From the NCBI GenBank assembly GCA_964482725.1, contig CAYZYT010000001.1, positions 270,912 through 334,911 of the forward strand: DNA of 64,000 nucleotides, written 5' to 3'. A model generated the notes under the pieces. It was given only the letters and a program-made list of their open reading frames with translations. It made no database searches and was not told the origin of the DNA. How positions within the stretch are numbered: position 1 is the first letter of the stretch; every line of letters begins with the position of its first letter. The position numbers were made by a program, and so were the translations under genes. Positions 4,019 to 30,050 of the stretch are shown piece after piece. This DNA is from an uncultured bacterium (GTDB lineage: Bacteria; Omnitrophota; Omnitrophia; Omnitrophales; Aquincolibacteriaceae).

Positions 4019-4092
4019 AGACTACAGACTTCAGACATCAGAAAAAACTTTCCTTTATTGTCTGTTGTCTGTGGTCTGTCGTCTGTTGTCTG
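4011..4092. repeat. inverted pair of 7-bp (heptad) tandem arrays: (NAGACNN)x4 then spacer then (TNGTCTG)x5
   Basis: Read directly: cagacta gagacta cagactt cagacat ... ttgtctg ttgtctg tggtctg tcgtctg ttgtctg. Arms are imperfectly complementary (long hairpin). Lies between convergent amrS and CYTH genes. Right arm is translated as the C-terminal tail of the CYTH protein. Confidence 0.65.
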
Positions 4093-9425: not shown

Positions 9426-9435
9426 AGAGGGCTTT

Positions 9436-10137
9436 ATGAGAAAAAAAAGGATGTTTCATGAAGGTCGGCTTTGGAGGGCCATGGAAGGTTTTACTCTGGT
9501 CGAAACCATGGTCGCCATCGGTTTTTTTTCACTCCTTTCTCTCGCCATATTTTCCACCATCACTTCTGCAAACGCTATTTTGCGAATGCAGACTTTAAAC
9601 GCCGGCATCAATCAAGGCGGCATGCAATTGCTCCGATCGCTTGCCCGAGAGATCGCCGAGAGCAGTCCCGTCGCCGACCAAAGCCATTTAAGCGTGACTT
9701 CGGATCCCAATCCCAATCCGGACTATCCCCCTTACAGCAATGTGAGATTCCAAGTTCCGATTGATTTGGATGGCGATGGCGACCTCGTGGACACCGCAGA
9801 TCCAACAGAGGCCTTAACCCAATTAGTGAAGTGGGGTGCCTACCGATTCGTGAGAACCCCCCAAGCACAGTCCTGGTTGAACGGATGGGTGCGATACCGT
9901 GTCGTGAACGGCCAGCTTCTACGAGAGATCCTGGAATCTTCAAACGGTGCCATACTTGCAACCGATATCATCGTCCTGGAAGATGCCCTGGAATTCAACA
10001 TCACACAAGTGAGCACCAATCGCTACGGTATTGTTTTAACCATAGGAAAACAGGATACCATCGGCCAGAAAGGCCCCACCGCCAGAACCTATCAAACAAC
10101 GTTCGACGGAGATGTCATGTTAAGGAACGGAGGGTAA
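9436..10137 (+). CDS. type IV minor pilin (PilW-like), prepilin N-terminal methylation motif
   Basis: GFTLVETMVAIGFFSLLSLAIF class III signal motif. Alternative starts 9451/9481 are in frame. Confidence 0.65.
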   Translation: MRKKRMFHEGRLWRAMEGFTLVETMVAIGFFSLLSLAIFSTITSANAILRMQTLNAGINQGGMQLLRSLAREIAESSPVADQSHLSVTSDPNPNPDYPPYSNVRFQVPIDLDGDGDLVDTADPTEALTQLVKWGAYRFVRTPQAQSWLNGWVRYRVVNGQLLREILESSNGAILATDIIVLEDALEFNITQVSTNRYGIVLTIGKQDTIGQKGPTARTYQTTFDGDVMLRNGG

Positions 10138-14335: not shown

Positions 14336-14474
14336 ACAGGAATCGTCAGGAGACAGCTCTCGGAGCTGATGGAAGCTCGGCCCTGCGCGACAGAGCAGGT
14401 TCCATCAGCGAGAGCGCAGGCTGGCATTCGCCGCGGGAGCGAATGAACAGCCGGTGTCGAAGGACGATTCCTGT
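14336..14474. other. nested multi-stem palindromic element (candidate structured RNA / regulatory element)
   Basis: Perfect 12-bp outer pairing acaggaatcgtc (14336-47) with gacgattcctgt (14463-74). Inside it sit a 7+9 bp bulged stem gctctcg-gag-ctgatggaa / ttccatcag-cgagagc (14356-74 / 14400-15) and a 7-bp hairpin cattcgc-cgcggga-gcgaatg (14425-45). Confidence 0.35.
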
Positions 14475-14609
14475 ACGCCACCTTGCCCGTTCCGTCTCGC
14501 GAGCGTGCCTCCCCGCACTGGGATCACTTTGTGTCTGGAAGGAGGGACGCGCCAAAAAAATTTTGCGTTCGCCGTTCCACGTTCTCCCTTTCCCGTATAT
14601 AATCCCCCC

Positions 14610-16802
14610 ATGCGAAAAGCACTTTCTTATATTATTCCCGCGCTGATCCTCTTCGGCGTCCTTGCGCTCCAATACAGTTTCCCGACCGAGATCGAATCGT
14701 TTCGCGCCAAGGTCTTCGACATTTTTCAAATGATCAAGCCTCGCGTTTATCAGGACACGCCGGTGCGCATCATCGACATCGATGACGAAAGCCTGGAAAA
14801 GATCGGGCAGTGGCCGTGGCCCCGGACGATCCTCGCGAAACTCGCCTCACGCCTGGCCGCGGGCGGCGCTACCGTGATCACCTTTGACGGGGTCTTTCCG
14901 GAACCGGATCGTTCTTCCCCAAAGAACATGCTTTCCCTTTGGGGGGAAGGCGCGACCGATGAACTTTTACGAGCTCAGCTCGACATGATCCCGGACCACG
15001 ACACGGTTTTCGCAGAAGCCATTGCCAAAGCACCTGTGGTCCTCGCCTTCGGGCTGACGAACGAATCGCATTCAAAACTTCCGGCATTAAAAACGGGATT
15101 TCTAGAACACGGGACGAGCAAGGACCCGGCTATTGACTACATCCAGCCTGTTTTTAAAGGCGCGGTCGTAAATCTCCCTCTCCTGGAAAAAGCCGCAAAG
15201 GGCAATGGCTGTTTTAATATGGGGACAGAATGGGATAACATTATCCGGCGCGTCCCGGCGCTTTTCCGGTTGAACAACACCCTTTATCCGGCCCTGGTCC
15301 TTGAAACCCTGCGTATTTTCCAAGGAGCTTCCGCTTATAAGATCACCCTCGCCGGCGCCACAGGCGAAACTTCCTTCGGAGAAAAAACCGGCCTTGTAAG
15401 CATTAAGACCGGCCTGTTGGAGGTCCCCACCGACGCCATGGGCCGGATCTGGCTTTACGACACCGGCTACAAAAAAGAACGCTTTGTCCCCGCCTGGAAA
15501 ATTCTTTCAAATGACAAGCTCCTCGAAGAGATGAAGGAAAAGGTTCTTTTCATCGGCACGAGCGCTATGGCCATGAAAGACATCCGCGCGACGCCGCTCA
15601 ATCCGCACGCCTCCGGCGTTGAAGTCCACGCTCAGATCGTGGAGCAAATGTTCCTTGGGGATTTCCTGGAACGGCCGGACTGGGCCGCAGGTCTTGAATT
15701 CACTTATCTGACTTTGCTCGGGATCCTGCTTATTTTGATCCTCCCCAAGGCGGGCGCCGTACGTTGCGCCGTGATCGCTTTCCTGGCGATCGTCTCCGCG
15801 TTCGGGGCTTGCTGGTATGCCTTCGTCCGTTGGCATTTTTTGATCGACCCGGTCTTCCCTTCGTTTGCTGTCTTTGGGATCTACCTGGCATCTTCTTTCC
15901 TGAACTTCCTCGGCACGGAGCGCGAACGCGGTCAGATCCGCGGCGCCTTCGGCCGTTATCTCTCCCCCGCGCTCGTCGAACGACTTGCCAAAAATCCCGG
16001 CCAGCTGAAACTCGGCGGCGAGATGCGCCCCATGACATTCCTTTTCATGGATATCCGGAACTTCACCGGGATCGCGGAAAAGTTCACGCCGGAAGAGCTC
16101 ACGCAATTTATGAACCGGTTTCTCACGCCCATGACCGACATCATCCTCCGGCTCGGAGGCACGATCGATAAGTACATGGGCGACTGCATCATGGCGTTCT
16201 GGAACGCGCCGTTCGAAGACAAGAACCACGCGCCCCACGCCTGCCAATCGGCCCTGGAGATGCAGCAATACCTGAGCACCACGCCGGGCTTTGAAGCCAT
16301 ACGCGTCGGGATCGGCGTCAATACCGGCAACGCCTGCGTCGGGAACATGGGATCGGAGCAGCGTTTTGACTATACAGCGCTCGGGGATGAAGTAAATCTC
16401 GCTTCCCGGATCGAGGGACTTTCAAAAAATTATGGCCTCACGGCTGTCGTAGGCCAAAACACCGTCGCGGCAGCGCCGGGATTCGCCACGATGGAGATCG
16501 ATCTCATCCGCGTCAAGGGAAAGACGAAGCCCGTCAAGCTCTTCGCGCTTTTGGGGGATACGGGGTTAGAAAATCAGACGCTTTTCAGGGAAGTCCGGGG
16601 ACATTTTGAAAAGATGCTTTCGGCCTACCGGGCTCAGCGGTGGGATGACGCTGAAAGAGCCCTCGATAACTGCCGCCACATCACTCTTCCAGGCCTCGAC
16701 CTTGGCGTGCTTTACGAACTTTACGTCTCACGCATCCTCGCCTACAAGATCAATCCGCCGTCTTCCAGTTGGGACGGCGTCACGACCGCCTCGTCAAAAT
16801 GA
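14610..16802 (+). CDS. CHASE2 sensor domain adenylate/guanylate cyclase (class III)
   Basis: Start at ATG 14610 (MRKALSYIIPALILFG), not ORF-track 14454. CHASE2 hallmarks (IIDIDDESL..GQWPWPR), multi-TM region, then cyclase domain (FLFMDIRNFT..., GDCIMAFWNAP). TATAAT ends 6 nt upstream of ATG. Confidence 0.8.
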   Translation: MRKALSYIIPALILFGVLALQYSFPTEIESFRAKVFDIFQMIKPRVYQDTPVRIIDIDDESLEKIGQWPWPRTILAKLASRLAAGGATVITFDGVFPEPDRSSPKNMLSLWGEGATDELLRAQLDMIPDHDTVFAEAIAKAPVVLAFGLTNESHSKLPALKTGFLEHGTSKDPAIDYIQPVFKGAVVNLPLLEKAAKGNGCFNMGTEWDNIIRRVPALFRLNNTLYPALVLETLRIFQGASAYKITLAGATGETSFGEKTGLVSIKTGLLEVPTDAMGRIWLYDTGYKKERFVPAWKILSNDKLLEEMKEKVLFIGTSAMAMKDIRATPLNPHASGVEVHAQIVEQMFLGDFLERPDWAAGLEFTYLTLLGILLILILPKAGAVRCAVIAFLAIVSAFGACWYAFVRWHFLIDPVFPSFAVFGIYLASSFLNFLGTERERGQIRGAFGRYLSPALVERLAKNPGQLKLGGEMRPMTFLFMDIRNFTGIAEKFTPEELTQFMNRFLTPMTDIILRLGGTIDKYMGDCIMAFWNAPFEDKNHAPHACQSALEMQQYLSTTPGFEAIRVGIGVNTGNACVGNMGSEQRFDYTALGDEVNLASRIEGLSKNYGLTAVVGQNTVAAAPGFATMEIDLIRVKGKTKPVKLFALLGDTGLENQTLFREVRGHFEKMLSAYRAQRWDDAERALDNCRHITLPGLDLGVLYELYVSRILAYKINPPSSSWDGVTTASSK

Positions 16803-16912: not shown

Positions 16913-17833
16913 CTACGATCCTTTAGAAACCGAGTATTTGGTGCCGCTATCCGTATTCGTTTTTCTTTCGCCAGAATGATCTTTGGCGGAATTTGCCGTA
17001 GAAGTCTGAGCCGCATCCTGAGCGCCAAGCGTACTTGTCTGATTCATACTATCCACATTATTGAGAAGATCTATCAACGACTGAGTGTCGATCTGTCTCT
17101 TCGGTAAAGAAGAAGGGGTCGCCTCCGTTCCCGGGCCCGCTGTTCCGGGGCCGGTCACCTTCTGTCCGAGTGCCACGGCAATCCGGTTCAGATCGGCTTC
17201 CGAGACCTGGAACACCGCCACTGGTGCGCTGTTGGGTCCGTCAACGATTGTCGCGTTCCCGGCGGTATCGATATCCACCCCCACGACCTCACCATTCACG
17301 ACATTGGTCACATAAATACGCCCCACACCCACGGGGCCCAAAAGCACGACGGTCGTTTTCTGACCGTCAATGATCCCCGCGACATTGGTCCCGCGAAAGC
17401 CGATGGACCCGGCCGGAAGATCAACCGACATGTTCTCCGATTTTTTGTGCGCCACCTTGCCGGAAACGACACGGAAGATCCCCTTCACCATGCTCGCCTT
17501 GACCTTTCCGTCATCATTGGCCGGGTCATACACGAATTCATCCACCGTGATCGCGCTTAAAGCTCCGAGCGTGAAAACCGTCTGATCCAGAAGCAGCACC
17601 TGCAGCTGTCCATCTGCCCCCGTTTCGATCTTATCGCCCATAAACACCGGGTCCCCGCTTTTCAGGGGATGTGAAACTTTAGACGGAGGCGTCGTCGCCT
17701 TGACCTCGCCTTTCACCGCCGCCGCGACCCCTGCCTGCGTCAATTCCGCCGGAGCGGCATACAAAGCTCCCACAGCTCCAAGCATCATAAGAACAGCGAT
17801 GGTCCCTATCCCCAAAAAACATTTCTTTGTCAT
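16913..17833 (-). CDS. secreted FecR-domain protein
   Basis: Signal peptide MTKKCFLGIGTIAVLMMLGAVGALYA. FecR-like core (GDKIETGADGQLQVLLLDQTVFTLG...IDEFVYDP). Paralog of next gene. Confidence 0.6.
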   Translation of the reverse strand: MTKKCFLGIGTIAVLMMLGAVGALYAAPAELTQAGVAAAVKGEVKATTPPSKVSHPLKSGDPVFMGDKIETGADGQLQVLLLDQTVFTLGALSAITVDEFVYDPANDDGKVKASMVKGIFRVVSGKVAHKKSENMSVDLPAGSIGFRGTNVAGIIDGQKTTVVLLGPVGVGRIYVTNVVNGEVVGVDIDTAGNATIVDGPNSAPVAVFQVSEADLNRIAVALGQKVTGPGTAGPGTEATPSSLPKRQIDTQSLIDLLNNVDSMNQTSTLGAQDAAQTSTANSAKDHSGERKTNTDSGTKYSVSKGS

Positions 17834-17935
17834 AAAAACTCCTCGCATGAGCGTGGGAAACCAACAAACGTTCAAGGTTCGGAAAGTTTAAAGGATCCAT
17901 CCTTCAAACAGGCATTGTCCATTATTTTCGTATTA

Positions 17936-19339
17936 TTAATAACCGTTTACGATACGATTCTGGGGAGGTGTCGGCTCCGGCGTCAGCCCCGGGCTTCGTG
18001 TTCCTTCGGTAGCTCCACTCCCCTTGTTACGGTACATAGGATCCTTATTATCATAAACAATAGAAGAAAATGCATTTTGCGCAACCACGCCGTTGGCATT
18101 TTGAAGCGTAATCGTCGCGCTGATATTGCTAGGGTTAGGGATACCGCTACCGATCGCGGGCGAAAAGACAGCGTAAGAACCCGCACCGCTATTGAAAGAA
18201 ACCGGCGCGATTTCGACATAGCCGGTATTAATATTACCGCCGGCCTCGCGCGTATCAATATTGATAAAAGATTTCCCGCCCCCTATGGTTTTCGTCCCAA
18301 AATTAATGTCTATAGAAGTGGACACCGTTCCGACATGGGGTGAGTAGGTACTACCGTTTGTCACTGTTTGAATAAATTCCCCTGTCCCAGCATAATGATA
18401 CTCACCCGTCGTAATCCTGGAAAGTTCGGAAATCAGCGTAGTGCCATCAGCAATGCTCCCGCTCTCCGCAGCCGCATCCTGGGCGGCCGTCGTGGAGGTA
18501 TCATTATTCGTATCACTCAGACCGTTCAGGCCCTGGGCCGTATCGCTGTTCTCTCCCGTCATGAAAGTGCCTTGTCCGGATTCGTCCGTCGCGGAGCCGC
18601 CGCCTTCTCCCGAATTGCTTCCCCCGCCTGACGGAGCGAGCCCCGCCGTAAGGCCATTGATATCTGCCTCGGAAAGCTGAAATGCGCCCGAGACACTTCC
18701 GTCCGCGCCCACCGTCACGCCAAAACCTGTATGATCGACATCCTGCTGGCCCGAATTCTGCCCGTTCCCTGTAATACTGAAACTCCCTGGCTGCGCTCCC
18801 GCGTTGTTATTAGCGCCGGGACCCAAAAGCGCCGCAAGCGAGGGCCCTCCTGGGACCACATTCCCGCCCACGATCGTTCCGCGAATACCGATCGTCGCCG
18901 TCGGAAGTTTGAGCGTCACATTGCTCGGTTTCTTGGCAGCGATCTTTCCGGACACATAGCGAAAAACACCTTTCGCAATGCTGGCCTGAACTTTCCCGTC
19001 CTGGGTCTTGGGATCGTAAACAAATTCATCGATCACGAGTAGGGTATTGGGGCCGATCGTGAAAACGGTCTCGTCCAGGAGCATGATCTGTAGATTCCCC
19101 TGCGCGTCCGTACTGATCTTATCCCCCAGGTACACCGGCTGACCGCTTTGCGCGATACGCCCCACCTGGCCCGGCATCATCAGCTCCACCTTGCCTCTCG
19201 CCGCCGCCACCACGCCGATCTGCTCCATGCCGGCAGACACACCCAGAGGCGCCGTCACGGCAACGGGCATTTGGGCAAAAACAGCCGGAGCGGAGAGGAT
19301 CATAAAGAACGCTAAAAAAGAAGCGAGTGTCTTTTCCAT
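17936..19339 (-). CDS. secreted FecR-domain protein with long Gly/Ser/Thr-rich beta-rich C-terminal region
   Basis: Signal peptide ...SAPAVFA-Q. Same FecR core as 16913..17833 (GDKISTDAQGNLQIMLLDETVFTIG...IDEFVYDP). 467 aa. Confidence 0.6.
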   Translation of the reverse strand: MEKTLASFLAFFMILSAPAVFAQMPVAVTAPLGVSAGMEQIGVVAAARGKVELMMPGQVGRIAQSGQPVYLGDKISTDAQGNLQIMLLDETVFTIGPNTLLVIDEFVYDPKTQDGKVQASIAKGVFRYVSGKIAAKKPSNVTLKLPTATIGIRGTIVGGNVVPGGPSLAALLGPGANNNAGAQPGSFSITGNGQNSGQQDVDHTGFGVTVGADGSVSGAFQLSEADINGLTAGLAPSGGGSNSGEGGGSATDESGQGTFMTGENSDTAQGLNGLSDTNNDTSTTAAQDAAAESGSIADGTTLISELSRITTGEYHYAGTGEFIQTVTNGSTYSPHVGTVSTSIDINFGTKTIGGGKSFINIDTREAGGNINTGYVEIAPVSFNSGAGSYAVFSPAIGSGIPNPSNISATITLQNANGVVAQNAFSSIVYDNKDPMYRNKGSGATEGTRSPGLTPEPTPPQNRIVNGY

Positions 19340-19342
19340 AAA

Positions 19343-20761
19343 TTAGAACTCCATTCTTTTTGTTAAGAGGCCTTCGATCTTGTTGTTCGTGTAGGTGTAA
19401 TTCGTGATGCTGGAAAGCGCGTGGTAATATTCGTAAGAGATCGTAAAAACGATATCCTTGAAGGGTTTGGGAAGGATCTTTCCGACCAGAAGCGTCTCGA
19501 GTGGCGCGCCATACGTCCCGCGGTACCGGACCGTGTTGTCGTGACGGTGCATGCTGGAGACGGAAAATTCCGGCGATTGATACCGGTCAAAATACGCACT
19601 CAGCGTGTTGATCACGAACTGGCCCTTCGGCCAGATCCAGGTATGGGTATTGTTCAGGCTGATACGGTCGTAAGCATAGTAATTCTGCTTGGCGAGTTTT
19701 TCCGAATAACCGATGTTCGAGCTCCATCGCATGGTCGGGCTCAACATGTAATTGGCCCCCCACACGTGATCGAACTCCGGACCTTTGCGGTTATAAGAAT
19801 CCGTGTTCTCCGAGACATTCATAAAATCCTGACGCTCGATCCTGAAATCATAGAACACATTGAGTTTTTTGGTAAGATCGCGGTCGAAAAGGAAATTCCC
19901 GCCCTGGCTCCTGAGAAAACTCTGGTCGGACAGGAACAGGTAAGTGTAAAAATACGACGGCGTAAAATTGATGTACTTGCCTTTATACGTCCCGCCGAGC
20001 TCGAACTGGAAAGAACCGAGGTTCAGGGAATGCACATTCGTTTGTTGCTGGAGATAGTGAGTAAAATTCCCGAAAAGGCTGTGCCCGGCCTGAAAACCGA
20101 GATCATGCGTGACATCCAGGCTTGCCACATTCAGAAAGTGAGTATCCGCCCGTCTGACATTCGACCCCTGAGTATCAAGCGCCGTATCAAAGAACAGCTG
20201 CTGTTTGGAATGCGGTGAGGCATTGCGGTTCGTGTCATACCCCCAGCCGGCGCTTTCACGAAGAGTGTAGTGGGTACGCCGCTTCTGGTACTGAATTTTC
20301 TTCTGATAAAAATCGACTTCCCGCTTGATCTCGGGAGGCAGGGCCAGGGTCTTCAGGACATTGAGTTCTTTTTGCACTTCGTTGAGGCTGTCCAAACGAT
20401 ACAGGACCACGGCATACAGCAGCCGGACATCGATCAGGTTCGGATTGATAAGCAGGATCCGTTCCAAGGTCGAAGAGGCGCCGAGCAGTTCGTTCTTCGA
20501 GATCTGATTTTGGGCATAACGAAAATTAAGCTCAATATTATCAGGATCCTTGAGGACATCCTGATAAGTAACGCCGGTCCTGAGCTGATCCGCTTTTTCC
20601 TTTTCCTGGGATTTATCAGCCGTCTTGGCGATCTGGTTCACCCCTCGAGTCTCCCGGCGAACGTTTTGAACCTCATTGGTGACATCTTCGGAAAAACCGG
20701 AAGGGATCGCTGGAAAAACAAAAACCGCAAGGACAAAACAGGCGAGGATCTTGAATTTCAT
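19343..20761 (-). CDS. outer-membrane protein: N-terminal TPR-like region + C-terminal beta-barrel (Slam/DUF560-like architecture)
   Basis: Signal peptide, TPR-like helical N-terminal ~150 aa, alternating-hydrophobic beta strands, C-terminal Phe (…TKRMEF). First gene of 3-gene minus-strand operon. Confidence 0.55.
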   Translation of the reverse strand: MKFKILACFVLAVFVFPAIPSGFSEDVTNEVQNVRRETRGVNQIAKTADKSQEKEKADQLRTGVTYQDVLKDPDNIELNFRYAQNQISKNELLGASSTLERILLINPNLIDVRLLYAVVLYRLDSLNEVQKELNVLKTLALPPEIKREVDFYQKKIQYQKRRTHYTLRESAGWGYDTNRNASPHSKQQLFFDTALDTQGSNVRRADTHFLNVASLDVTHDLGFQAGHSLFGNFTHYLQQQTNVHSLNLGSFQFELGGTYKGKYINFTPSYFYTYLFLSDQSFLRSQGGNFLFDRDLTKKLNVFYDFRIERQDFMNVSENTDSYNRKGPEFDHVWGANYMLSPTMRWSSNIGYSEKLAKQNYYAYDRISLNNTHTWIWPKGQFVINTLSAYFDRYQSPEFSVSSMHRHDNTVRYRGTYGAPLETLLVGKILPKPFKDIVFTISYEYYHALSSITNYTYTNNKIEGLLTKRMEF

Positions 20762-21029: not shown

Positions 21030-22997
21030 ATGTCATTCCAATTGGATCCGTTCCAGATCGAAGCCATCGCATGGATCGAAAAAGAACATTCCCTTCTCGT
21101 TTCCGCACCCACAGGTTCCGGGAAAACACTCATTGCCGAAAAAGCCGTTGAGAAAGCCCTCTCCCGAGGCGAGCAGGTCATCTACACCGCCCCGATCAAA
21201 GCCCTGAGCAATCAGAAGTTCCGCGATTTCCAGGTGCATTTCGGTAAAGAAACGGTCGGCATCCTGACCGGGGACGTCTCGATCAATTCCGGAGCGCCGC
21301 TCCTCATTATGACAACGGAGATCTACCGGAATTGCCTTTTTGAGAACGCGGAGCGCATCCAAAAGATCGGCTGGGTCATTTTTGACGAAGTCCATTATCT
21401 GGATGACCCGCAACGAGGCACGGTCTGGGAAGAGGCGCTCCTTTTCACACCCCCGGAGATTCGCATCCTCGCGCTCTCCGCCACGATCCCGAACGTCCAG
21501 GAACTCGCGGCCTGGATCCGGCAGATCCACCAGCGCCCGATCGCCGTGATCGAAGAGACGCATCGCCCCGTTCCGCTCCATTTTCTTTTTCAATGCCAGG
21601 GCAAGATCCTCACGAATACAAAATCGCTTCGCAAGGAGGGCTACCTCCAGCGCGACAATTGGCAGCTTTCCATGCGGGAAAAGCGCCGCGGTTGGCAGCC
21701 CCCCCGCGCGCGGCCGAATCGCCTGCATGACATGATCCAGCACTTGATCAACGAAGATCAACTCCCGGCCATTTATTTCGCCTTCGGACGAAAACGCACG
21801 GCCCAGCTTGCCTGGGAAGTCGCCCATTTCGATTTTTTGAGAGATGCGGAACGCCGAGAGGTCCGGACGCTTTATGATGAACTTTTGGCGCGTTACGACC
21901 TGGCCGGGGACAAAACCGCCGAAGAGATACGCCCGCTCATTGAGCAAGGCATCGCCTACCATCATGCCGGCATGCTCCCAACGCTCAAGGAAGTCATCGA
22001 AAGACTTTTCACAAGCCGCTTGCTCAAGCTCATCTTCACGACCGAAACCTTCGCGCTGGGGATCAACATGCCGGCGCGCACGGTTGTCTTCGATGAGCTG
22101 GAAAAATTCTACGGGACAGGATTTAAACCGCTCACCACACGGGACTTTTTCCAGATGGCCGGACGTGCGGGACGCCGCGGCATGGATCCTGAAGGATTCG
22201 CCTACTGCCGTATCCATCCGAACGATATCGCCTTCCCGGAAGTGGAGCGCATCCTTTACGGAAAGCCGGAACCTGTGCGCAGTCAGCTAAACGCCACCTA
22301 CGCAACACTCCTGAACCTTTACAAGATGCTCGGGCACCGGCTCCTTGAGATCTATCCCCGGTCCTTCCATTTCTTTCAGTCCTCCAAACGAAAACGCGAT
22401 GAAGGGCTCGACTTATTGAAGAACAAACTGGCACTTCTGCAGGAGATGGGTTACATCACGGACCAAGGAACGACTGAGACCCAAGGCGTGCTCACGGTCA
22501 AAGGAGAATTTGCGGCCTCGATCTTTGGATTTGAGTTGCTTCTTACGGAAATGTATACCGATGGCGCGCTCGAGCAACTGGACGAAGCGAAATTGAACGT
22601 CTTCCTGGCGGGGCTGATCTTTGAACCCCGGAAAAATGACGAAGCCCCGCGGCTCGGGAAAGACCACGGGGAGTTACTTAAAATGACACAGCATTATCAC
22701 CGGATGATCTTTAAGTGGGAATCCAATTTCCGCGTCACGCCTCACACCAAGCCTCCCTATTTCCATCTCGCCCGCCCCATCGAAGCCTGGACGCAGGGCA
22801 AGGATTTTGATCATATCTGCAAACTCACCTCGGAAGACGAAGGGAGCCTGGTGCGTTATATCCGGATGGTGATCCAATTGTTGCGGGAGATCGCGAACGC
22901 GCCGCACGCGTCCGAAGGGCTCAAAGCGAAAGCTCGACGCGCACGGGGGATGATCGATCGGGATGTGGTGGACGCGGAAAAACAGCTGCGGGTCTAG
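21030..22997 (+). CDS. DEAD/DEAH-box superfamily-2 helicase, Ski2-like (HelY-type)
   Basis: Motif I APTGSGKT, motif II FDEVHY, motif III SAT, motif VI QMAGRAGRRG. C-terminal alpha-helical extension. TATAAT ends 6 nt before ATG. Confidence 0.8.
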   Translation: MSFQLDPFQIEAIAWIEKEHSLLVSAPTGSGKTLIAEKAVEKALSRGEQVIYTAPIKALSNQKFRDFQVHFGKETVGILTGDVSINSGAPLLIMTTEIYRNCLFENAERIQKIGWVIFDEVHYLDDPQRGTVWEEALLFTPPEIRILALSATIPNVQELAAWIRQIHQRPIAVIEETHRPVPLHFLFQCQGKILTNTKSLRKEGYLQRDNWQLSMREKRRGWQPPRARPNRLHDMIQHLINEDQLPAIYFAFGRKRTAQLAWEVAHFDFLRDAERREVRTLYDELLARYDLAGDKTAEEIRPLIEQGIAYHHAGMLPTLKEVIERLFTSRLLKLIFTTETFALGINMPARTVVFDELEKFYGTGFKPLTTRDFFQMAGRAGRRGMDPEGFAYCRIHPNDIAFPEVERILYGKPEPVRSQLNATYATLLNLYKMLGHRLLEIYPRSFHFFQSSKRKRDEGLDLLKNKLALLQEMGYITDQGTTETQGVLTVKGEFAASIFGFELLLTEMYTDGALEQLDEAKLNVFLAGLIFEPRKNDEAPRLGKDHGELLKMTQHYHRMIFKWESNFRVTPHTKPPYFHLARPIEAWTQGKDFDHICKLTSEDEGSLVRYIRMVIQLLREIANAPHASEGLKAKARRARGMIDRDVVDAEKQLRV

Positions 22998-23004
22998 CCC
23001 TACA

Positions 23005-23760
23005 TTACATCATGCCCTTTAAAAGATCGTCTATCTTTTCCAAAAGATCATTTTCGTTGCGATGGAGGATGATCCGTTCCCCTGAAAAAGTTTTTAGAGC
23101 CTCCCCGGAAAGTCTCTCTTCGCAGTAAACAAAAAAAGACACCTCGCTAAGCAAGGGGTGCCCCTCAAGTTTCTCTTTGAGTTTCCGAGCGTCGACAAGG
23201 CTTTCATCCTCCCAGAATTGGCAAAAAACATGGGCGGCATTGAGCTGCTTTGTTAGATGAAAGGCATCGTCCTCGTTCAGAGCGACAAAGGCCTGAAAAC
23301 CACGCTCTTGGATCGCCGTTTGGATCTTACTGAGGAGATCCTCCTGAACGCCAAGGATCACCACGCGCTTGGAACCATCCGGGTTCTGCTCCGCACTTTT
23401 CCACAAGAGCCTTTCTATTTTAGAGAGTAAGGCCTTAATCTCGTACGGTTTCGGCATGAACTCCACACTATTAAGATCCGTAAAAAATTCCCGCATACTC
23501 GCTTTTGCTGACATAGCAAGCACCGGAATCTTCCGTAAGGCTTCAATCTCGCGGATCTTTTGAAGGGCTTCATAGCCGGTCATTTTCGGCATCATCACAT
23601 CCATCACAATAAGATCCGGTTTTTGGGATTGGGCCATGGCCAACGCCTCGGCTCCATCCTGGGCCGTACAAACCTCATAGCCAGACGCCGAGAGTTGCTT
23701 GGTCAGTAGCGCCACAACGGTCGGGCTATCATCTACAACAAGGATCTTTCTAGCAGGCAT
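23005..23760 (-). CDS. response-regulator receiver (REC) protein with C-terminal degenerate pseudo-receiver-like domain, paralog 1 of 4
   Basis: REC motifs KILVVDDSP...DLIVMDVMMPKMTGYE...IPVLAMSAK. C-terminal ~125 aa with conserved CQFWED / YCEERL. Start taken at MPARKILVVDD by analogy with paralogs. Confidence 0.75.
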   Translation of the reverse strand: MPARKILVVDDSPTVVALLTKQLSASGYEVCTAQDGAEALAMAQSQKPDLIVMDVMMPKMTGYEALQKIREIEALRKIPVLAMSAKASMREFFTDLNSVEFMPKPYEIKALLSKIERLLWKSAEQNPDGSKRVVILGVQEDLLSKIQTAIQERGFQAFVALNEDDAFHLTKQLNAAHVFCQFWEDESLVDARKLKEKLEGHPLLSEVSFFVYCEERLSGEALKTFSGERIILHRNENDLLEKIDDLLKGMM

Positions 23761-23846
23761 GATCTTGTCAGCTCCTTTTTCATCATTCACTTAAAAGCAT
23801 CCACTCGACATGGGACCCTCGCGGACAAACAGCGGCAGGCCTAACA

Positions 23847-24599
23847 TTATTTTTCTTTAAAAAGCTCGCCTATCTTCTTCAAAAGATCCGCTTCATTGCG
23901 ATGAGACACAACCTGATCCTCCGTAAAAGTTTTTAGAACCTCTCCGAAAAGTCTCTCTTCGCAGTAAACAAAAAAAGATACCTCGCTAAGCAAGGGGTGC
24001 CCCTCAAGTTTCTCTTTGAGTTTCCGAGCGTCGACAATACTCTCATCCTCCCAGAATTGGCAAAAAACATGGGCGGCATTGAGCTGCTTTGTGAGATGAA
24101 AGGCATCCTCCTCATTCAGCGCCTTAAAAGTCTGGAACCCAAGCGCATTGACCAACATTTGAAGTTTATTGGTAAGAGCCTCCTGGACGCCAAGAAACAC
24201 CACTCTCCTAGAACCATCCGGATCCCTCTTTTCGCTCTCCCAAAGAAGCCTTTCGATCCTGGCGAGCAAGGTCCGGATCTCATACGGCTTCAGCATGAAC
24301 TCTACGCCGTTAAGGTCCGTGAAAAAAGCCCCCATGTTCTTATTGGCGGAGAGGATGATCGCAGGAATTTTTCGAAGCTCCTCCGCATCGCGCACTTTCT
24401 GAAGGACTTCATAACCGGTCATTTTCGGCATCATGACATCCATCACGATAAGATCCGGTTTTTGAGCTCTCACTGCGCCCAAAGCCTCGGCTCCGCCCGC
24501 GGCCGTACAAACCTCGTAACCCGACGCCATGAGCTGTTGGGTCAGGGTAGCTACAATCGTCGGGCTATCATCCACGACAAGGATCTTTTTAGAAGGCAT
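23847..24599 (-). CDS. REC + pseudo-receiver protein, paralog 2 of 4
   Basis: Same architecture. DNA 23941-24120 is ~95% identical to 23101-23280 (offset 840 bp). Confidence 0.75.
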   Translation of the reverse strand: MPSKKILVVDDSPTIVATLTQQLMASGYEVCTAAGGAEALGAVRAQKPDLIVMDVMMPKMTGYEVLQKVRDAEELRKIPAIILSANKNMGAFFTDLNGVEFMLKPYEIRTLLARIERLLWESEKRDPDGSRRVVFLGVQEALTNKLQMLVNALGFQTFKALNEEDAFHLTKQLNAAHVFCQFWEDESIVDARKLKEKLEGHPLLSEVSFFVYCEERLFGEVLKTFTEDQVVSHRNEADLLKKIGELFKEK

Positions 24600-24688
24600 G
24601 TCTTTAAAAACTCCTCATGAATCATTACTTCGAACGGCTTGGTCAGAAGGGGGTCGACGCGAAAAAACAGCTGCGGCCTAGTACCGTG

Positions 24689-25441
24689 TTACATTTCCTT
24701 AAAAAGGTCGGCAAGCTTTTCCAAAAGCTCGTTCTCATCACTGTAAATAATGACCCGTCCGTCTGCAAAAGTCTTCCGAGCCTCGCCGGAAAGCCTCTCT
24801 TCGCAATAAACATAAAAGGGTACTTCGCTAAGCAACGGGTGCCCTCCGAGCTTTTCTTTGAGTTTGTGAACATCGCCCCCTCCCGCATCCTCGCAGAATT
24901 GGCACAAGATATTCCCGGGATTCAGCTGCTGCGCCAGATGGAAGGCATCCTCCCCGTTCAGCGCAATAAAAGCCTGAAAACCAAGCCCCTGGATCGCCAT
25001 CTGGAGCCTTTGGGTAAGAGCCTCTTGGCCCCCAAAAAGCACCACTCGCTTGTAACCATCCGGGCTCTGCTCCTCGCTTTCCCAAAGAAGCCTTTCTATC
25101 CTGGAGAGTAAGATCCGGGTCTCATACGGCTTCGGCACAAACTCTACGCCATGAAGGTCCGTGAAAAATTCTCGCATACTCGGCTTTGCTGAAATAATAA
25201 TCGCGGGAATTTTCCGAAACGCATCCGTTTCTCGGATCTTTTGGAGCGCTAGATAGCCGGTCATTTTCGGCATCATCACATCCATCACAATAAGATCCGG
25301 CTTCTGCGACTGCACCATCACCAAGGCCTCGGCTCCATCCACGGCCGTACAAACCTCGTAGCCGGACGCAGTCAGCCGCTTGCCAAGGATCGCCACAAGA
25401 TTCGGATCATCATCCACCAGAAGGATCTTTTTGGATGCCAT
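24689..25441 (-). CDS. REC + pseudo-receiver protein, paralog 3 of 4
   Basis: MASKKILLVDDDP...DLIVMDVMMPKMTGY; C-terminal CQFCED...YCEERL. Confidence 0.75.
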   Translation of the reverse strand: MASKKILLVDDDPNLVAILGKRLTASGYEVCTAVDGAEALVMVQSQKPDLIVMDVMMPKMTGYLALQKIRETDAFRKIPAIIISAKPSMREFFTDLHGVEFVPKPYETRILLSRIERLLWESEEQSPDGYKRVVLFGGQEALTQRLQMAIQGLGFQAFIALNGEDAFHLAQQLNPGNILCQFCEDAGGGDVHKLKEKLGGHPLLSEVPFYVYCEERLSGEARKTFADGRVIIYSDENELLEKLADLFKEM

Positions 25442-25460
25442 GCCTATTTAAAACTCCGCT

Positions 25461-26213
25461 TCATGACTCCTTTAAAAACTCGCTTATCTTATTTAAGAGC
25501 TCTTCCTTGTCGCGATACATAATGATCCGCCCCTCCACAAAAGATTTGCGAGCTTCAACCACGATTCTCTCTTCGCAATAAACATAAAGAGGCACCTGTT
25601 TTAGCAGAGGATGGGTCGCCAGTTTTCCTTTGAGCTTTTGGGCGCTCAGGATGCTTTCATCCTCCCAGAACTGGCACAAGATATTCCCGGGGGTCACCTG
25701 CTGCGCCAGCTGGACAGCATCCTCCTCGTTCAGTGCGATAAAAACCTGAAAACCGAGCGAACGGGCCAGCATTTGGATCTTATTGGTAAGAACCTCCTGG
25801 ACTCCCAAAAGCACCATCCGTTTTGAACCATCCGGATTCTGCGTTTCGCTTTCCCACAGAAGCCTTTCCACCTTGGACAGAAGTACCCGAGGATCATACG
25901 GTTTGGGGACAAAATCAATAAAGGGACGGTCCTTAAAAAATTCCCGCATACTTCCTTTGGCTGAAATAATGATCACCGGGATCTTCCGCCATTCATCCCG
26001 CTTGCGGATCATTTCAAGGACCTCATAGCCGGTCATCTTCGGCATAAGGACATCCAGAATAATAAGGGCGGGCTTTTCCGATCCCATCTTCGCGAGAGCT
26101 TCTTCCCCGTTCATGGCGGTGGAAACCTCATACCCGGAAGACATGAGTCGCTGTGCCAGGACGGCCACGATATCCGGGTCATCATCCACTACGAGGATCT
26201 TTCTAGATCGCAT
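25461..26213 (-). CDS. REC + pseudo-receiver protein, paralog 4 of 4
   Basis: MRSRKILVVDDDP...LIILDVLMPKMTGYE; C-terminal CQFWEDES...YCEERI. Confidence 0.75.
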   Translation of the reverse strand: MRSRKILVVDDDPDIVAVLAQRLMSSGYEVSTAMNGEEALAKMGSEKPALIILDVLMPKMTGYEVLEMIRKRDEWRKIPVIIISAKGSMREFFKDRPFIDFVPKPYDPRVLLSKVERLLWESETQNPDGSKRMVLLGVQEVLTNKIQMLARSLGFQVFIALNEEDAVQLAQQVTPGNILCQFWEDESILSAQKLKGKLATHPLLKQVPLYVYCEERIVVEARKSFVEGRIIMYRDKEELLNKISEFLKES

Positions 26214-26263
26214 GTTTTTCTAAAACTCCGTTTTCACTTCCCCCAGGAAAATACAATGAAATC

Positions 26264-26293
26264 ATAATAAGCGTACTTGGTCTATTTTACAAG
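26264..26293 (-). promoter_or_regulatory. candidate sigma70-type promoter (minus strand) TTGTAA-N17-TATTAT upstream of REC paralog 4
   Basis: Read on reverse complement of 26264-26293 in the 113-bp gap between the AddB-like gene and the REC array. Confidence 0.3.
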
Positions 26294-26326
26294 CGACTGT
26301 TTCTCCCCTTTCACTCGATCTGTTTC

Positions 26327-29300
26327 TCAGCACTCCCCCAAGCCTTCTTTCTCATCCTCCTGGCGTATTTTCTCCAGAAAGATCGGCAACTTCCATTTCT
26401 CAACACGGCACACGGTATCATAAGGGCAAAAACTTTCGCAATCCCGCGGCCGCACGGGGATCTCGGCGGATGCGATGGCTTTCATAAACTTTTGAACGAA
26501 CGCGACCGCCCGCCCCAAAACCTTTTGGAACACTTCGTCCGGGAGCTGAGACCGGGAAGAAAACTCTTTTTCAAACGTCTCCGCGATCCCTTCGCAATAA
26601 AAACCACTCCGCTTATGGTCTCGGATGGAATAGATCTCAGCACCAAGAGGCGCAAGGCCCAGATGCTTTTGAACCGCCAGAAGATAAAGCGGTAGCTGGA
26701 GCGCAGTGCCCAGATTAAGGTTGGACGCCTTGAACTGCGCCGAGCGTTTGTAATCGATCACCACAGCGAACTTCTTCTCCGCATCTGTATCGATCCGGTC
26801 CACGCGGCCCCGTAGCCGGATCCTTTTGCCTTCGCTCTCGATCTCGAACGCCGGCCGATCCTTGTCCCCGAAGGGATACTCCACGTAGCACGGCTTAAAA
26901 GATGAGTGTTTCAGTCGCTCCGCCTCATAGCTCATAAAATCCAAAAGCATCTCGGAAAGCTCACGGCGATCCAAAGCCTCCTGGTAAGGCTCTGCCCATA
27001 ACATCGGATGCCGCTTGAAGCCTTCTTCCATTTCACGTTGAATGAATGCTTCGATCGACTCTTTCGGATCTTTCTTTCCCTTGGGGTCAAAATACTGCTG
27101 AAGCACATGGTGCAGGATGCTTCCTTTTTGCATCACGCGGATATCACCGCCCACCTCTTTCAATTTGAGAACTTTGTCAGAAAAATAGCGGAAAGGACAT
27201 TTGGCATAAGTCTCCAGGCGCGTCGGGCTTGTTTCCGGGATCTCGAAATATTTCCCTTTTAGGATCATATCATCCAGGATCCTCGCCTCGACAGGCTTCA
27301 GAGCGGAAAGAAGGCGCTGGCGACTTTGAGGATCTCCGGAAAGCTGGCCCAAAGCCTTTTTAAACGCCGGCCCTGGGCTTCCCGCGTTTCGAAGAGCTCC
27401 AACGACGGAGGCTTCCAATTCCCGGCGCGTGATCGCTTCCTCGATCTCTGGGAAAGGTCGCGAGAGGTCCTGACGCATCACAGGGACATGGCCCTCAAAA
27501 AGGTCTTTGACTTCTTCCAGATAGAACGAGGGCAGGGATTCTTTCCCTTCGAAATCAAGATGCGGGCAGCTTAAAAAAAGCTGCTCTTTCGCGCGTGTAA
27601 CCGCGACATAAAAAAAGAACCGCTCGATATCCTGCCGGGGCAGACATTCGGCAAGAGGATGTTCCCTGTCGCCATTCATCAATTTCCTCTCCCAATCCGA
27701 GAGCAGCGGATCTTCGCGAACCTGCATGGGAAAAACTTTTTCCAGGAGGCCTGCCACGAACACGACTTTGTATTCTTTCTGCCGGGCCAGCGAAACATCG
27801 TAGACCTGGACGCGGTTCTTGTCGCGCTCGTGAAGCGAATAAACGTCCAGTTCCACAAGGCCGAGGAAGTGATCGGCGAAACTGTCAAAAGAGATCTCCG
27901 GCGCTTTACCTTTCAGAAAATAACTTTGGATTTCATCGAGCAAAGCCTCGAATCGTTTGGCGCAGGCCGCATCCCTCCGCGTGAAAGAGGTGTAGCCGTC
28001 GCTTATCTCCAGGATCCCGAAAGTGTCGTACACCGCCCGTTTGAAGATCCGGACATGCTCTTCCGCCGTTTGGACTCTCCGGAACCGATCTTCAAGCTCT
28101 ATGAGAGCCTCCAGCGTTGCCGCCTTTTTCACATTAAAATCCGCCAAGCTTTCTCCATCTCCCCGCATCCAATCCGCCATCCACGCCTCGCGTGTTCCCG
28201 CCACGCCTTCCAGGAACGAACGCTGCTCAAACTCCGCGAGCCATGCTTCATCCTTGGCTCTATCTTTCCCAAGACGACGCGTGTAACCCGATTTCAGGAA
28301 AGCAAAAACGTCCTCCCGCTGCCAGGCATTCCTGAAAATAGAAAGCAGCGACGATGTCGCAGCGATCCAGGAAGAGAATTTTAAACGATCGCGTTCATGG
28401 ACCTCGGCAGGGATCCCGTAACGCGAAAAGACCGAAGCAATGACCGGCGCGTAATGCCGGATCTGGCGAAACAAGACCGCAAAATCACTATAGCGGTAAT
28501 CCCCGGTCGCATAGAGCTTGTGGATCTGCCGGGCGATCAGCTCGATCTCCCCTTCGGTCCCGATCGCGTCCAGCATCACGATGTCCTGCCCTATGGCCGG
28601 CACCGGGTTGCGGGATTTCTGAGAGAAAATATTTTTTTGGAGAAAAAGAAGTGATGTCTTTTCAGTGCGATAAGAATGCGCCTTCAGGGTCCGCGCTTTG
28701 AACCCGAGCTTTTCGAGATCCTTCTGTGTCTGGCTCACGGCTTCAAAAGCTTCTTCGCGCCCTTCTTCTTTGGTAAGCGTGATCGTGATGTTTTCTGTAA
28801 TCGCCGAAAGCTCCCGGAGGTATTCCAGCTGCAAATTCGAAAAATCAAAAAAACCGTCGATCCAGATCGCTTTGAATCGCATCCCCGGAGCCTCCGCCTT
28901 CTTTTTCTTCTCACGGAAGAGGCGCAGTGAATCCTGGCTGTCCCGAAGACCGTTCTTTTTCAGACGTGCTTCATATTGTTCATAAAAATCGGCAAGCGCT
29001 TCGTACTTCGCAACATAGGCTGGCTCAAAACCCTTGAGCGTGTTCATGCGTTTTCGAAAGACCTCGGAAGAAATGCAGGACTCCTTAAGCTCGGTGATAA
29101 ATTGCGCCATCAGCCCCAGGAATCCGGGTTGCTCATACACTTCCATGAAATAGTCCCATGCGTTCTCGCGGAGGAGGTCCCGGACGATCATCGTGCGCGT
29201 GAGGCTGGAAGCCACGGGGATATCGGCAACTCGGAAAAGATCTCCCGCAAGACGGGAAAGCGTCGTCACGCGTTTATGGAAAAATCCCTTGAGACCCCGC

Positions 29301-29467
29301 TGGATCAAAAGCGAGACGACGCGTTCGGTGTGTTCTGCGGAGGGAACGATAAAGAAAAGATCGGCGGCAAGCGGATCGGGCGCGTTTGAAAGCGCCGTCC
29401 CGAAGGAATCAAGAAGCTCGTGCGTCTTCCCGCAACCCGCGGGACCGATGAGCAATGTCTTCGACAT
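26327..29467 (-). CDS. AddB-like helicase-nuclease: N-terminal P-loop domain + C-terminal PD-(D/E)XK nuclease with Fe-S cysteines; no addA partner in window
   Basis: Walker A LLIGPAGCGKTHEL. C-terminal nuclease region with Cys before the core (KCPFRYF) and CESFCPYDTVC after it (C-x2-C-x5-C), the AddB iron-sulfur staple arrangement. 1046 aa. Confidence 0.7.
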   Translation of the reverse strand: MSKTLLIGPAGCGKTHELLDSFGTALSNAPDPLAADLFFIVPSAEHTERVVSLLIQRGLKGFFHKRVTTLSRLAGDLFRVADIPVASSLTRTMIVRDLLRENAWDYFMEVYEQPGFLGLMAQFITELKESCISSEVFRKRMNTLKGFEPAYVAKYEALADFYEQYEARLKKNGLRDSQDSLRLFREKKKKAEAPGMRFKAIWIDGFFDFSNLQLEYLRELSAITENITITLTKEEGREEAFEAVSQTQKDLEKLGFKARTLKAHSYRTEKTSLLFLQKNIFSQKSRNPVPAIGQDIVMLDAIGTEGEIELIARQIHKLYATGDYRYSDFAVLFRQIRHYAPVIASVFSRYGIPAEVHERDRLKFSSWIAATSSLLSIFRNAWQREDVFAFLKSGYTRRLGKDRAKDEAWLAEFEQRSFLEGVAGTREAWMADWMRGDGESLADFNVKKAATLEALIELEDRFRRVQTAEEHVRIFKRAVYDTFGILEISDGYTSFTRRDAACAKRFEALLDEIQSYFLKGKAPEISFDSFADHFLGLVELDVYSLHERDKNRVQVYDVSLARQKEYKVVFVAGLLEKVFPMQVREDPLLSDWERKLMNGDREHPLAECLPRQDIERFFFYVAVTRAKEQLFLSCPHLDFEGKESLPSFYLEEVKDLFEGHVPVMRQDLSRPFPEIEEAITRRELEASVVGALRNAGSPGPAFKKALGQLSGDPQSRQRLLSALKPVEARILDDMILKGKYFEIPETSPTRLETYAKCPFRYFSDKVLKLKEVGGDIRVMQKGSILHHVLQQYFDPKGKKDPKESIEAFIQREMEEGFKRHPMLWAEPYQEALDRRELSEMLLDFMSYEAERLKHSSFKPCYVEYPFGDKDRPAFEIESEGKRIRLRGRVDRIDTDAEKKFAVVIDYKRSAQFKASNLNLGTALQLPLYLLAVQKHLGLAPLGAEIYSIRDHKRSGFYCEGIAETFEKEFSSRSQLPDEVFQKVLGRAVAFVQKFMKAIASAEIPVRPRDCESFCPYDTVCRVEKWKLPIFLEKIRQEDEKEGLGEC

Positions 29468-29564: not shown

Positions 29565-30050
29565 TTATTTTTCATAGACCGCGCAGCTGTCCTGATTCTC
29601 CCAAAGCGTGACCTTGGAGACCGGAAGTTTCATGCGACGGGCTTCACAAAAGATCCACCGGGCGAGCATCTCGGCAGTCGGATTCTCTTCCACGAGCACC
29701 ACGGGTTCTCCGGCTTTCTTAAGAAGCTTCGCGAGGGGGTCTTTACTCCAGAGGATCATTTTATGATCAAGATGACAGTCGATCCATTCGCCGATCGTCC
29801 GCTTGATGTCAAAAAAATCCACAACCATCCCCTTGGGGTTGAGCTTGGGACTCGCCATTTCGATCTCCACGCGCGCGCTGTGGCCGTGAAGATGTGAACA
29901 CTTGTGCTGGCCACTCTCTTCTTCCAGCTGAAGGTTGCCAGCACTAGTCCCATTAGCCTTTAAATCTTTTGATGGAGAATGGGGCTTGTCATGCCCCCCC
30001 AGAAGCCGGTGCCCATAATTGAAATAGATCATTTTTGCGACTTTGAACAT
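29565..30050 (-). CDS. queD: 6-carboxy-5,6,7,8-tetrahydropterin synthase (QueD / PTPS family)
   Basis: CxxxHGH motif (CSHLHGHS), FNYGHRLL N-terminus, ~160 aa. Confidence 0.7.
   Translation of the reverse strand: MFKVAKMIYFNYGHRLLGGHDKPHSPSKDLKANGTSAGNLQLEEESGQHKCSHLHGHSARVEIEMASPKLNPKGMVVDFFDIKRTIGEWIDCHLDHKMILWSKDPLAKLLKKAGEPVVLVEENPTAEMLARWIFCEARRMKLPVSKVTLWENQDSCAVYEK

Follow-up and report, generated by a model that had tools for sequence, protein, structure and literature searches.

What do four consecutive response-regulator genes without a recognizable output domain do between the gene of an AddB-like nuclease and that of a Ski2-like helicase? The question is raised by a stretch of 64 000 nt (positions 270 912 to 334 911 of contig CAYZYT010000001.1, from an uncultured bacterium of the phylum Omnitrophota), which was analysed as a whole and is called the window below. 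An earlier note on this DNA had read the four genes as a signalling array welded to the nuclease, possibly a new system of repair or defence. Our answer starts from the regulators themselves: profile comparison and structure prediction indicate that the C-terminal half of each is a pseudo-receiver without any output domain, standing in the place of one, and alignment indicates that its former active site is rebuilt into a different conserved site. The domain identities, the fold, the residues lost and gained, the selection acting on them, the history of duplication and conversion and the distribution of neighbouring genes are direct observations.

We numbered the four paralogs P1 to P4 from the helicase side to the AddB-like side. 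They are consecutive open reading frames (ORFs) on the minus strand within 23005-26213: the AddB-proximal P4 (25461-26213), P3 (24689-25441) and P2 (23847-24599) encode 250 amino acids each, and the helicase-proximal P1 (23005-23760) encodes 251 when read from its ATG. A receiver (REC) domain is recognized by the Pfam model PF00072 at residues ∼6-115 of each paralog, with E-values of 1e-24 to 1e-27 (2.8e-26 for P4) and scores of 84-93.5 bits, all above the cutoff of 30.2, and its active-site quintet is complete in all four (VVDD, (M/L)DV(M/L)MP, SAK/SAN, KPY). The ORFs and the Pfam matches thus agree with the earlier description of four co-oriented genes for proteins of ∼250 amino acids, each with a receiver and a C-terminal part of ∼125 residues. 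The phospho-acceptor context given there, DVMMPKMTGYE, holds for P1 and P2 but has to be amended to DVMMPKMTGYL for P3 and to DVLMPKMTGYE for P4. Pairwise identity among the paralogs is 57-72% at the amino-acid and 67-77% at the nucleotide level. A GGAG-type Shine-Dalgarno sequence lies 11-12 nt ahead of an ATG in every gene (12 nt in P4). In the ORF list P1 extends up to a GTG at 23790, which has no Shine-Dalgarno before it; since the ATG at 23760 is preceded by AGGAG and is aligned with the first methionine of the other three paralogs, it is most likely the true start.

The C-terminal domain (CTD; residues ∼126-250 of P1-P4) gave no match in Pfam (E≤0.1) and none in NCBIfam. Its relationship appears when profiles are compared: a profile built from 110 CTDs aligns with the REC profile of the same proteins at 98.2% probability (hhalign, E 5e-14) over 115 columns, at 10% identity. 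The profile search that the earlier note had called for bears out the pseudo-receiver fold, as nearly all significant matches of the CTD in the PDB are receiver domains, the best being 2qxy at 6e-7, apart from a handful of proteins designed de novo. An AlphaFold model of the CTD only, based on 48 sequences, has a predicted local distance difference test score (pLDDT) of 95.4 and shows the (beta-alpha)5 topology, and the top Foldseek match of a full-length model is PleD, spanning both receiver domains (E 6e-13). Given the lack of Pfam and NCBIfam matches and the receiver fold, the idea that the CTD is some known output domain can be discarded. As defined by Bourret et al. 2025, a pseudo-receiver (PsR) has a receiver fold and misses the residues for phosphotransfer, and the CTD has the former and misses the latter. 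It is matched neither by PF00072 nor, provided that the Pfam set holds them, by the six minor PsR models described in PMC12632262; because no Pfam model matches, we take it as an undescribed sequence family that is PsR by its fold and residues.

In the profile alignment, the CTD keeps none of the five catalytic residues. The acidic pair DD is replaced by G-[VIA], the phospho-acceptor D by Q and the T/S by C, and the Lys-Pro loop is deleted. The replacing residues are themselves conserved: G stands at the first position of the acidic pair in 84% of the sequences, Q at the position of the phospho-acceptor Asp in 88%, and C at the Thr/Ser position in 82%. The Q is followed by F/Y (95%), then by W (74%), E (79%) and D/E (80%), with D/N nine positions after it (95%), and together these residues define a new motif, Q-[FY]-W-E-[DE]-x4-[DN], with 74-95% conservation per position. 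They are located exactly at the loops of the former active site. The ratio of non-synonymous to synonymous substitution rates (dN/dS) is between 0.11 and 0.37 in REC and CTD alike, for every pair of paralogs and orthologues tested, as expected under purifying selection (0.14-0.21 for P4 against its orthologues). These values, together with the conserved new motif, rule out a decaying relic. The ‘degenerate receiver’ without output domain of the earlier note is therefore right as to the receiver fold and the missing output, but ‘degenerate’ does not suit a domain with its own conserved motif and such low ratios. Of the four paralogs, only P3 lacks part of the family signature, reading QFCEDAGGGD where QFWEDES(I/L)VD is expected. 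As the gene is undamaged and its dN/dS, about 0.2-0.3, points to purifying selection, P3 may have an altered specificity.

How widespread are such proteins? A word-indexed homologue search returned one fragment only. An exhaustive HMMER search with the four CTDs gave 143 clusters (at 50% identity) with E≤1e-3, nearly all of proteins of 245-300 amino acids having the domain at their C-terminus. Exactly one REC lies upstream of the CTD in 131 of the 140 proteins where the CTD was confidently placed, and the linker between the two, measured in the same 140 proteins, varies from -2 to 127 residues (median 13.5) and is rich in Ala and Pro. Rare variants possess an extra REC or an N-terminal pair of CBS domains; otherwise, no further Pfam domain is present. 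Across the family the N-terminal receivers keep their catalytic residues, with DD in 98 of 110 sequences, D in 109, S/T in 104 and K in 108. Every record or protein with a taxonomic label belongs to Omnitrophota, and no member was found on a viral contig. Scanning of loci, with an alignment of a nine-sequence subset as query, confirmed 10 genome loci and 28 metagenome loci. Members bear generic database names (‘response regulator’, ‘CheY-like chemotaxis protein’), and our literature search found no paper describing the family, nor anything relevant on Omnitrophota signalling or recombination or on bacterial DSHCT helicases. The CBS pairs deserve a mention of their own. In P0059/P0150 (397-398 amino acids) such a pair is fused to the N-terminus of a family protein; at locus L017 a separate gene for a CBS pair (9155-9589) lies directly upstream of the regulator; and at L039 the same place is occupied by an ORF of comparable size (3933-4415), known by its size and position only. 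This suggests a recurring tie of the family to the sensing of adenosyl ligands.

Two precedents guide our view of how such proteins may work. In PleD, phosphorylation of the receiver repacks it against a pseudo-receiver and drives dimerisation (PMC12632262); DrdR, which is made of two receiver-fold domains and has no output domain, binds and stimulates the PilB and PilT ATPases (PMC13507683). Since P1-P4 combine an intact receiver, a tether and a motif-bearing pseudo-receiver, we consider it rather probable, by analogy with these two cases, that they are orphan two-domain regulators in which phosphorylation would alter the contact between REC and pseudo-receiver, and hence oligomerisation or the binding of a partner. 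A kinase encoded elsewhere, or acetyl phosphate, would phosphorylate Asp54 of the receiver (counting from Met1 of the 250/251-residue proteins); this would change the packing of the receiver against the flexibly tethered pseudo-receiver, and the repacking would in turn affect dimerisation or the binding of a partner protein through the conserved face of the pseudo-receiver.

Several points weigh against this proposal. Phosphorylation, an output through contacts between proteins and the choice of a target are all three inferred by us. No histidine kinase is encoded within the 64-kb window and, among ∼25 contexts, a single one (L056) has a kinase, a PAS histidine kinase, within ∼1.3 kb of the regulator. 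The linkers, being long, variable and rich in Ala and Pro, are unlike the compact stem of PleD, and for this reason the analogy with PleD may fail in detail. The full-length model, computed from a four-sequence alignment, is of moderate confidence (pLDDT 74, predicted TM-score 0.51) and therefore does not fix the arrangement of the two domains. Lastly, the conserved pocket of Gln, Trp, acidic residues and Cys would fit a sensor of small molecules or of redox state as well.

If the regulators bind a partner, which one? Comparison of the loci of family members divides them into three groups. In the first, the order PTPS, AddB-like gene, array and convergent helicase is found in about 13 distinct lineages, with 1-4 regulator copies, AddB-like proteins at 62-82% and helicases at 78-95% identity. 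This recurrence of the AddB-like gene beside the array, which the earlier note had suggested checking, is accompanied by full collinearity of everything around: ispH/LytB, nitroreductase, efp, PTPS, AddB-like, array, helicase, a TPR protein of 472 amino acids and FecR. The second group consists of L020, L021 and L022, more distant members with the CTD at ∼30% and the helicase at 56-62% identity; these loci have no AddB-like gene and unrelated genes upstream (CxxCxxCC/DJ-1 or a GH57 glycosidase), but keep a convergent DSHCT helicase directly downstream, with 10, 2 and 47 nt from stop to stop. At about ten loci, forming the third group, neither the AddB-like gene nor the helicase is next to the regulator. 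Among them are the second and third loci of a genome that also has a helicase-linked one (L014 and L017 versus L013). Their flanks are mixed (GT9, a CBS pair with an HlyD/ABC transporter, redoxin, dapFAB, NUDIX, SNase), and no single partner recurs beside these dispersed copies. The helicase is thus the neighbour of the family that is retained over the greatest evolutionary distance. NUDIX genes were seen one to three genes away from regulators in L020 (9957-10484), L021 (3433-4008), L022 (10045-10584) and L055 (4435-4998 and 6617-7414), and the regulator pair of L055 lies between a NUDIX gene and a convergent gene for an SNase nuclease; these neighbours hint at a theme of nucleic-acid metabolism.

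In the window, the helicase (21030-22997, plus strand, 655 amino acids) is of the Mtr4/Ski2 type, with DEAD, Helicase_C and DSHCT domains in Pfam. The convergent Ski2-like helicase of the earlier note is confirmed, its stop codon being 7 nt from that of P1. Like other Mtr4/Ski2/HelY-type RNA helicases it has this domain set, and it matches human MTR4 with an E-value of 8e-116. Unlike them it is bacterial, with no exosome partners evident, and it appears to lack the arch/KOW insertion, as suggested by its length and by an end-to-end alignment with the arch-deleted construct 6c90. It is 92-95% identical in relatives whose regulators are 48-79% identical, and no gene of the block is better conserved, a pattern more in keeping with a housekeeping enzyme than with a gene of defence. 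The genes around it show 60-80% identity in genomes where the helicase itself has 92-95%; such a helicase was also noted at L003, L020, L021, L022 and L051. No significant RNA structure was predicted at the 7-nt convergent junction (z = -1.2), and a bidirectional terminator or a structured RNA there is accordingly not supported.

One possibility, unlikely but the best surviving among the more specific ones, is that the regulators are phosphorylation-dependent partners of this helicase, coupling two-component signalling to the unwinding of RNA or RNA:DNA, and that the paralogs tune or diversify this control. Regulator and helicase form a tail-to-tail pair with 2-47 nt between the stops (in L053 the distance is 103 nt, and that the truncated ORF downstream is the helicase is a presumption). 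This is the only neighbour relation that holds across at least three unrelated contexts, AddB/TPR-FecR, CxxCxxCC/NUDIX and GH57/ABC, while helicase identity falls from 95% to 56%. Other contexts have enzymes of nucleic acids too, such as the NUDIX and SNase genes of L055, and DrdR provides the precedent of a tandem-receiver regulator that stimulates ATPases (PMC13507683). However, convergent genes are not co-transcribed, and adjacency is then weaker evidence than an operon would be; about ten loci of the family have no helicase, including L014 and L017, in the same genome as L013; the junction shows no significant RNA structure; and our sampling started from the regulators, so that helicases lacking a regulator neighbour fall outside the sample.

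The other candidate is the AddB-like protein itself (26327-29467, minus strand, 1046 amino acids). Like the AddB subunit of AddAB, which is marked by ADDB_N, an inactive SF1 helicase-like region and an Fe-S nuclease, it comprises ADDB_N (2e-30), UvrD_C and PDDEXK_1 (1e-39) domains, the last being a PD-(D/E)XK nuclease with DYK at residue 905, a Walker A motif (GPAGCGKT) and four cysteines for an Fe-S cluster (Cys757 and C1010-x3-C1014-x5-C1020). The length, the Walker A motif and the nuclease are as the earlier note described them, but the cysteine spacing is Cx3Cx5C and not CxxCx5C. The best NCBIfam match, addB_Gpos (TIGR02773), scores 300.5 bits against an equivalog cutoff of 903.7, and TIGR02786 scores 59 bits against 486.5; by these matches the protein is a genuine but divergent member of the AddB family. 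Genes addA and addB are normally neighbours. It was noted earlier that an AddA partner is missing from the window, and indeed none of the ORFs of the 64 kb is AddA-like; the lack of an adjacent addA is a further difference from AddAB, and it extends to the about 13 relatives, where no addA was found within ∼2-10 kb of the AddB-like gene, depending on the contig. A PTPS/QueD-family gene belonging to the conserved collinear block (29565-30050, minus strand) lies 97 nt upstream. On the other side, the gap to P4 was said to be 113 bp long and to contain a promoter. The length is correct and sigma-70-like hexamers exist (TTGTAA-N17-TATTAT, 26264-26292, minus strand), but they match in 9 of 12 positions and the region has 5 promoter-like sites versus 4.1±2.3 in shuffled sequences, so that the promoter is a putative one and unproven.

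That the array and the AddB-like gene make up one co-transcribed, signal-controlled module of repair or defence, in which the regulators would switch the nuclease, is in our estimate improbable. PTPS, the AddB-like gene and the four regulators are on one strand, spaced by 19-113 nt, and none of these gaps holds a convincing terminator, so that co-transcription of the AddB-like gene with the array is possible. Moreover, the AddB-like gene is followed by the array in about 13 lineages, down to 62-65% identity of the AddB-like protein and 34-40% of the CTD, and in the sequence covered addA is not beside it at any of these loci. On the other hand, all genes of the neighbourhood are collinear in this clade, so that adjacency is unspecific and gives little evidence of a functional tie; the distant L020, L021 and L022 have kept the helicase with no AddB-like gene; and about ten further loci have neither neighbour. 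PADLOC returned partial generic matches only, to GajB and Cas4 domains for the AddB-like protein, to the HamB helicase core for the helicase and to REC-like segments for the regulators. With such matches, no relatives on viral contigs and the block seated among housekeeping genes (efp, ispH), a defence island or a mobile element is rejected, and the proposal of a new system welded to the nuclease is not supported. The AddB-like gene looks like an upstream neighbour inherited within one clade rather than a defining partner. As a target, then, the helicase is the best candidate, though still an unlikely one, and the AddB-like nuclease is less likely. More doubtful again is a scheme embracing both, with the regulators as phosphorylation-controlled adaptors for the helicase and, in this clade, for the AddB-like protein without AddA, within an Omnitrophota-specific module for nucleic-acid processing, subject to two-component control, where the amplified and converted paralogs would diversify the specificity for inputs or targets.

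Why are there four copies? The spacers prove that the array grew by duplication in place. The P3-P2 spacer contains a 21-nt remnant of the last codons of the helicase gene (24656-24676, plus strand; repeat family D5), 95% identical to 22971-22991 and reading VDAKKQLRP*, where the helicase itself ends in VDAEKQLRV* (source region of its 3′ end, 22958-22997). A weaker remnant of 14 nt (23820-23833, plus strand; 93% identical, E 0.23 when taken alone) is present in the P2-P1 spacer, in register with the former within a repeat unit of 839/842 nt. Because the spacers hold these helicase tails, the duplicated unit was the helicase-proximal gene together with the overlapping end of the helicase gene, which was carried along as the gene was duplicated in place. 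The tree of paralogs from the syntenic loci falls into two lineages. One unites P4 with its orthologues, the AddB-proximal copies of all close relatives, and includes copy 1 of L003, L010, L011, L012 and L026; P1, P2 and P3 form the second, distal-copy lineage, which was re-duplicated independently in different genomes, P1 and P2 being the youngest pair. The syntenic position has one copy in L013, L031 and L051, two in L010, L011, L012, L015, L016/L036, L026, L028 and L053, three in L003-L009 and four in the window, and the locus probably started out with one or two. Separate tandem arrays exist at unrelated loci (two copies in L019 and in L055, three in L052, and L057). It may be added that L001 and L002, Logan contigs assembled from short reads of this organism, break within the array, at the start of P3 or P4; as short-read assemblies do so, the copy number of the family is probably under-counted in many metagenome-assembled genomes.

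P1 and P2 were later partly homogenised by gene conversion. Over alignment columns 511-705, corresponding to 23086-23280 in P1 and 23925-24119 in P2 (both on the minus strand), the two genes differ at 10 of 195 nt (95% identity), as compared with 161 of 555 nt elsewhere (71%). The tract stretches from alpha2 to beta4 of the pseudo-receiver, taking in the QFWED and YC motifs, and is significant in a GENECONV-style permutation of polymorphic sites (p≤1e-4). Purifying selection alone does not account for it: among codons for the same amino acid, 6 of 61 differ inside the tract versus 44 of 119 outside, and in the tract region of the other paralog pairs 31-46% of such codons differ. As synonymous sites too are homogenised, and this in P1/P2 only, the tract reflects a recent homogenisation and not constraint. 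A sister strain has the same tract identity (106/113 versus 107/113), and, judged by eye against the translated P2, its fragment P0001 is almost identical to this paralog. Independent contigs from strains ∼96% identical to ours, L023 and L027, cover 24441-26400 and 23168-24655, i.e. the P4-P3-P2 and P2-P1 junctions, and since they show both the tract and the array, a chimera of assembly is ruled out for either. The permutation, the deficit of synonymous differences and the sister strain all agree with the recent conversion that the earlier note had perceived, with coordinates within 15 nt of ours. Terminator-like hairpins of one and the same sequence (CCTTGCTTAGCGAGG, then a T-run) are present at 23142-23156 and 23981-23995 (minus strand), inside the coding sequences of P1 and P2; being coding, copies of one another within the conversion tract and located in a region whose count of such sites is below that of shuffled sequences, they are in all likelihood chance occurrences and were rejected as terminators.

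The variation in copy number brings up another explanation, very unlikely in our opinion, according to which the paralogs are mainly phosphate sinks or buffers competing for the phosphoryl groups of one kinase, with the CTD as a mere stabilising scaffold. Some chemotaxis systems have additional CheY proteins in this role. It would suit a set of orphan receivers that retain their active sites and lack an output domain, and likewise a copy number that changes among close relatives, which is expected of a function of the dosage type. But selection constrains the pseudo-receiver no less than the receiver, the domain displays a highly conserved, family-specific surface motif that a passive scaffold does not need, and the paralogs, at 57-72% identity, have not remained the same.

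Pseudo-receivers regulated by ligands or by redox state have been documented (PMC12632262, PMC7010744), the c-di-GMP-binding one of ShkA and the redox-sensing RitR and HP1021 being examples. The least probable proposal is that the pseudo-receiver is a sensor whose pocket of Gln, Trp and acidic residues, with the Cys, binds a small molecule (e.g. c-di-GMP) or senses redox state, so that each protein would integrate two inputs. In its favour, the conserved residues stand at the former active-site loops, with a Cys in place of the Thr in 82% of members; there is a resemblance to RitR; the window encodes two CHASE2-linked cyclases, of which one has GGDEF; and some members are fused to or lie beside ligand-binding CBS pairs. 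Against it, a Cys one position ahead of the Gln is found in only 48% of members, and no known c-di-GMP motif turned up (no test was aimed at one). Sensing is compatible with phosphorylation-dependent contact between the two domains and is no exclusive alternative to it.

As for the remainder of the window, its large ORFs encode, among others, an autotransporter, two CHASE2 cyclases, a Na+/H+ exchanger and FecR-like proteins, and scans for tRNAs and Rfam families were empty. The genes for the CHASE2-sensor proteins are at 14454-16802 (plus strand) and 60468-62339 (minus strand), one protein having an adenylate/guanylate cyclase domain and the other GGDEF; as the first of the two genes is also syntenic in L003, genes for cyclic-nucleotide signalling cluster near the array. 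Beyond the helicase are the genes for two FecR-domain paralogs and for the 472-residue TPR-like protein, which has no other Pfam match (16913-19339 and 19343-20761, minus strand); this FecR/TPR order is kept in relatives, with an extra FecR-like copy in L012. The autotransporter (42962-50761, minus strand) has 2599 amino acids, PATR repeats and a C-terminal beta-domain. Omnitrophota is reported to be a phylum of largely ultra-small cells (PMC10066038).

Pseudo-receivers account for several percent of bacterial receiver-like domains, and output-less tandem-receiver regulators are called widespread (PMC12632262, PMC13507683), but how bacterial pseudo-receivers are switched on and off was still termed a mystery in a 2025 review (PMC12632262), and DrdR, published in 2026, is the first functional example of a tandem-receiver regulator without output domain (PMC13507683). 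The kind of protein is therefore known; what is new is the family, with its rebuilt motif, its apparent restriction to one phylum, its repeated tandem amplification with conversion and its pairing with a helicase. It offers a clean natural test case, having an invariant REC-linker-PsR architecture, a rebuilt active-site motif and a copy number of 1-4, and its ∼140 sequence clusters can be used for covariation analysis. That a signalling protein is repeatedly paired with a bacterial Mtr4-like helicase is put on record for an uncultivated phylum about whose regulation hardly anything is known, and the tempting but weak interpretation as a new defence or repair system is removed.

The closest likeness in domain order is the D1-D2 stem of PleD of Caulobacter crescentus (REC, pseudo-receiver, GGDEF), where a REC is likewise followed by a pseudo-receiver. 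The array proteins, however, end ∼125 residues after the linker, with no match to GGDEF or to another output, and without a GGDEF domain they stand outside the PleD family. Their CTD is only ∼13% identical to that of PleD, the linker is variable and rich in Ala and Pro, and the Q-[FY]-W-E-[DE] and Cys signature is their own. With DrdR of Xanthomonas campestris (XC_3845), compared here through its published description and not its sequence, they share one catalytic and one non-catalytic receiver fold, the lack of an output and the status of orphan without an adjacent kinase. Yet the order is reversed in DrdR, its pseudo-receiver being N-terminal and truncated to (beta-alpha)4, so that the array proteins, in which REC precedes PsR, are not DrdR-like in this respect; they also come from a different phylum, and no type IV pilus genes flank the array. 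Finally, in FrzS, RitR and ShkA Rec1 the corresponding domains are joined to coiled-coil, DNA-binding or kinase modules, whereas here the pseudo-receiver is joined only to a normal receiver.

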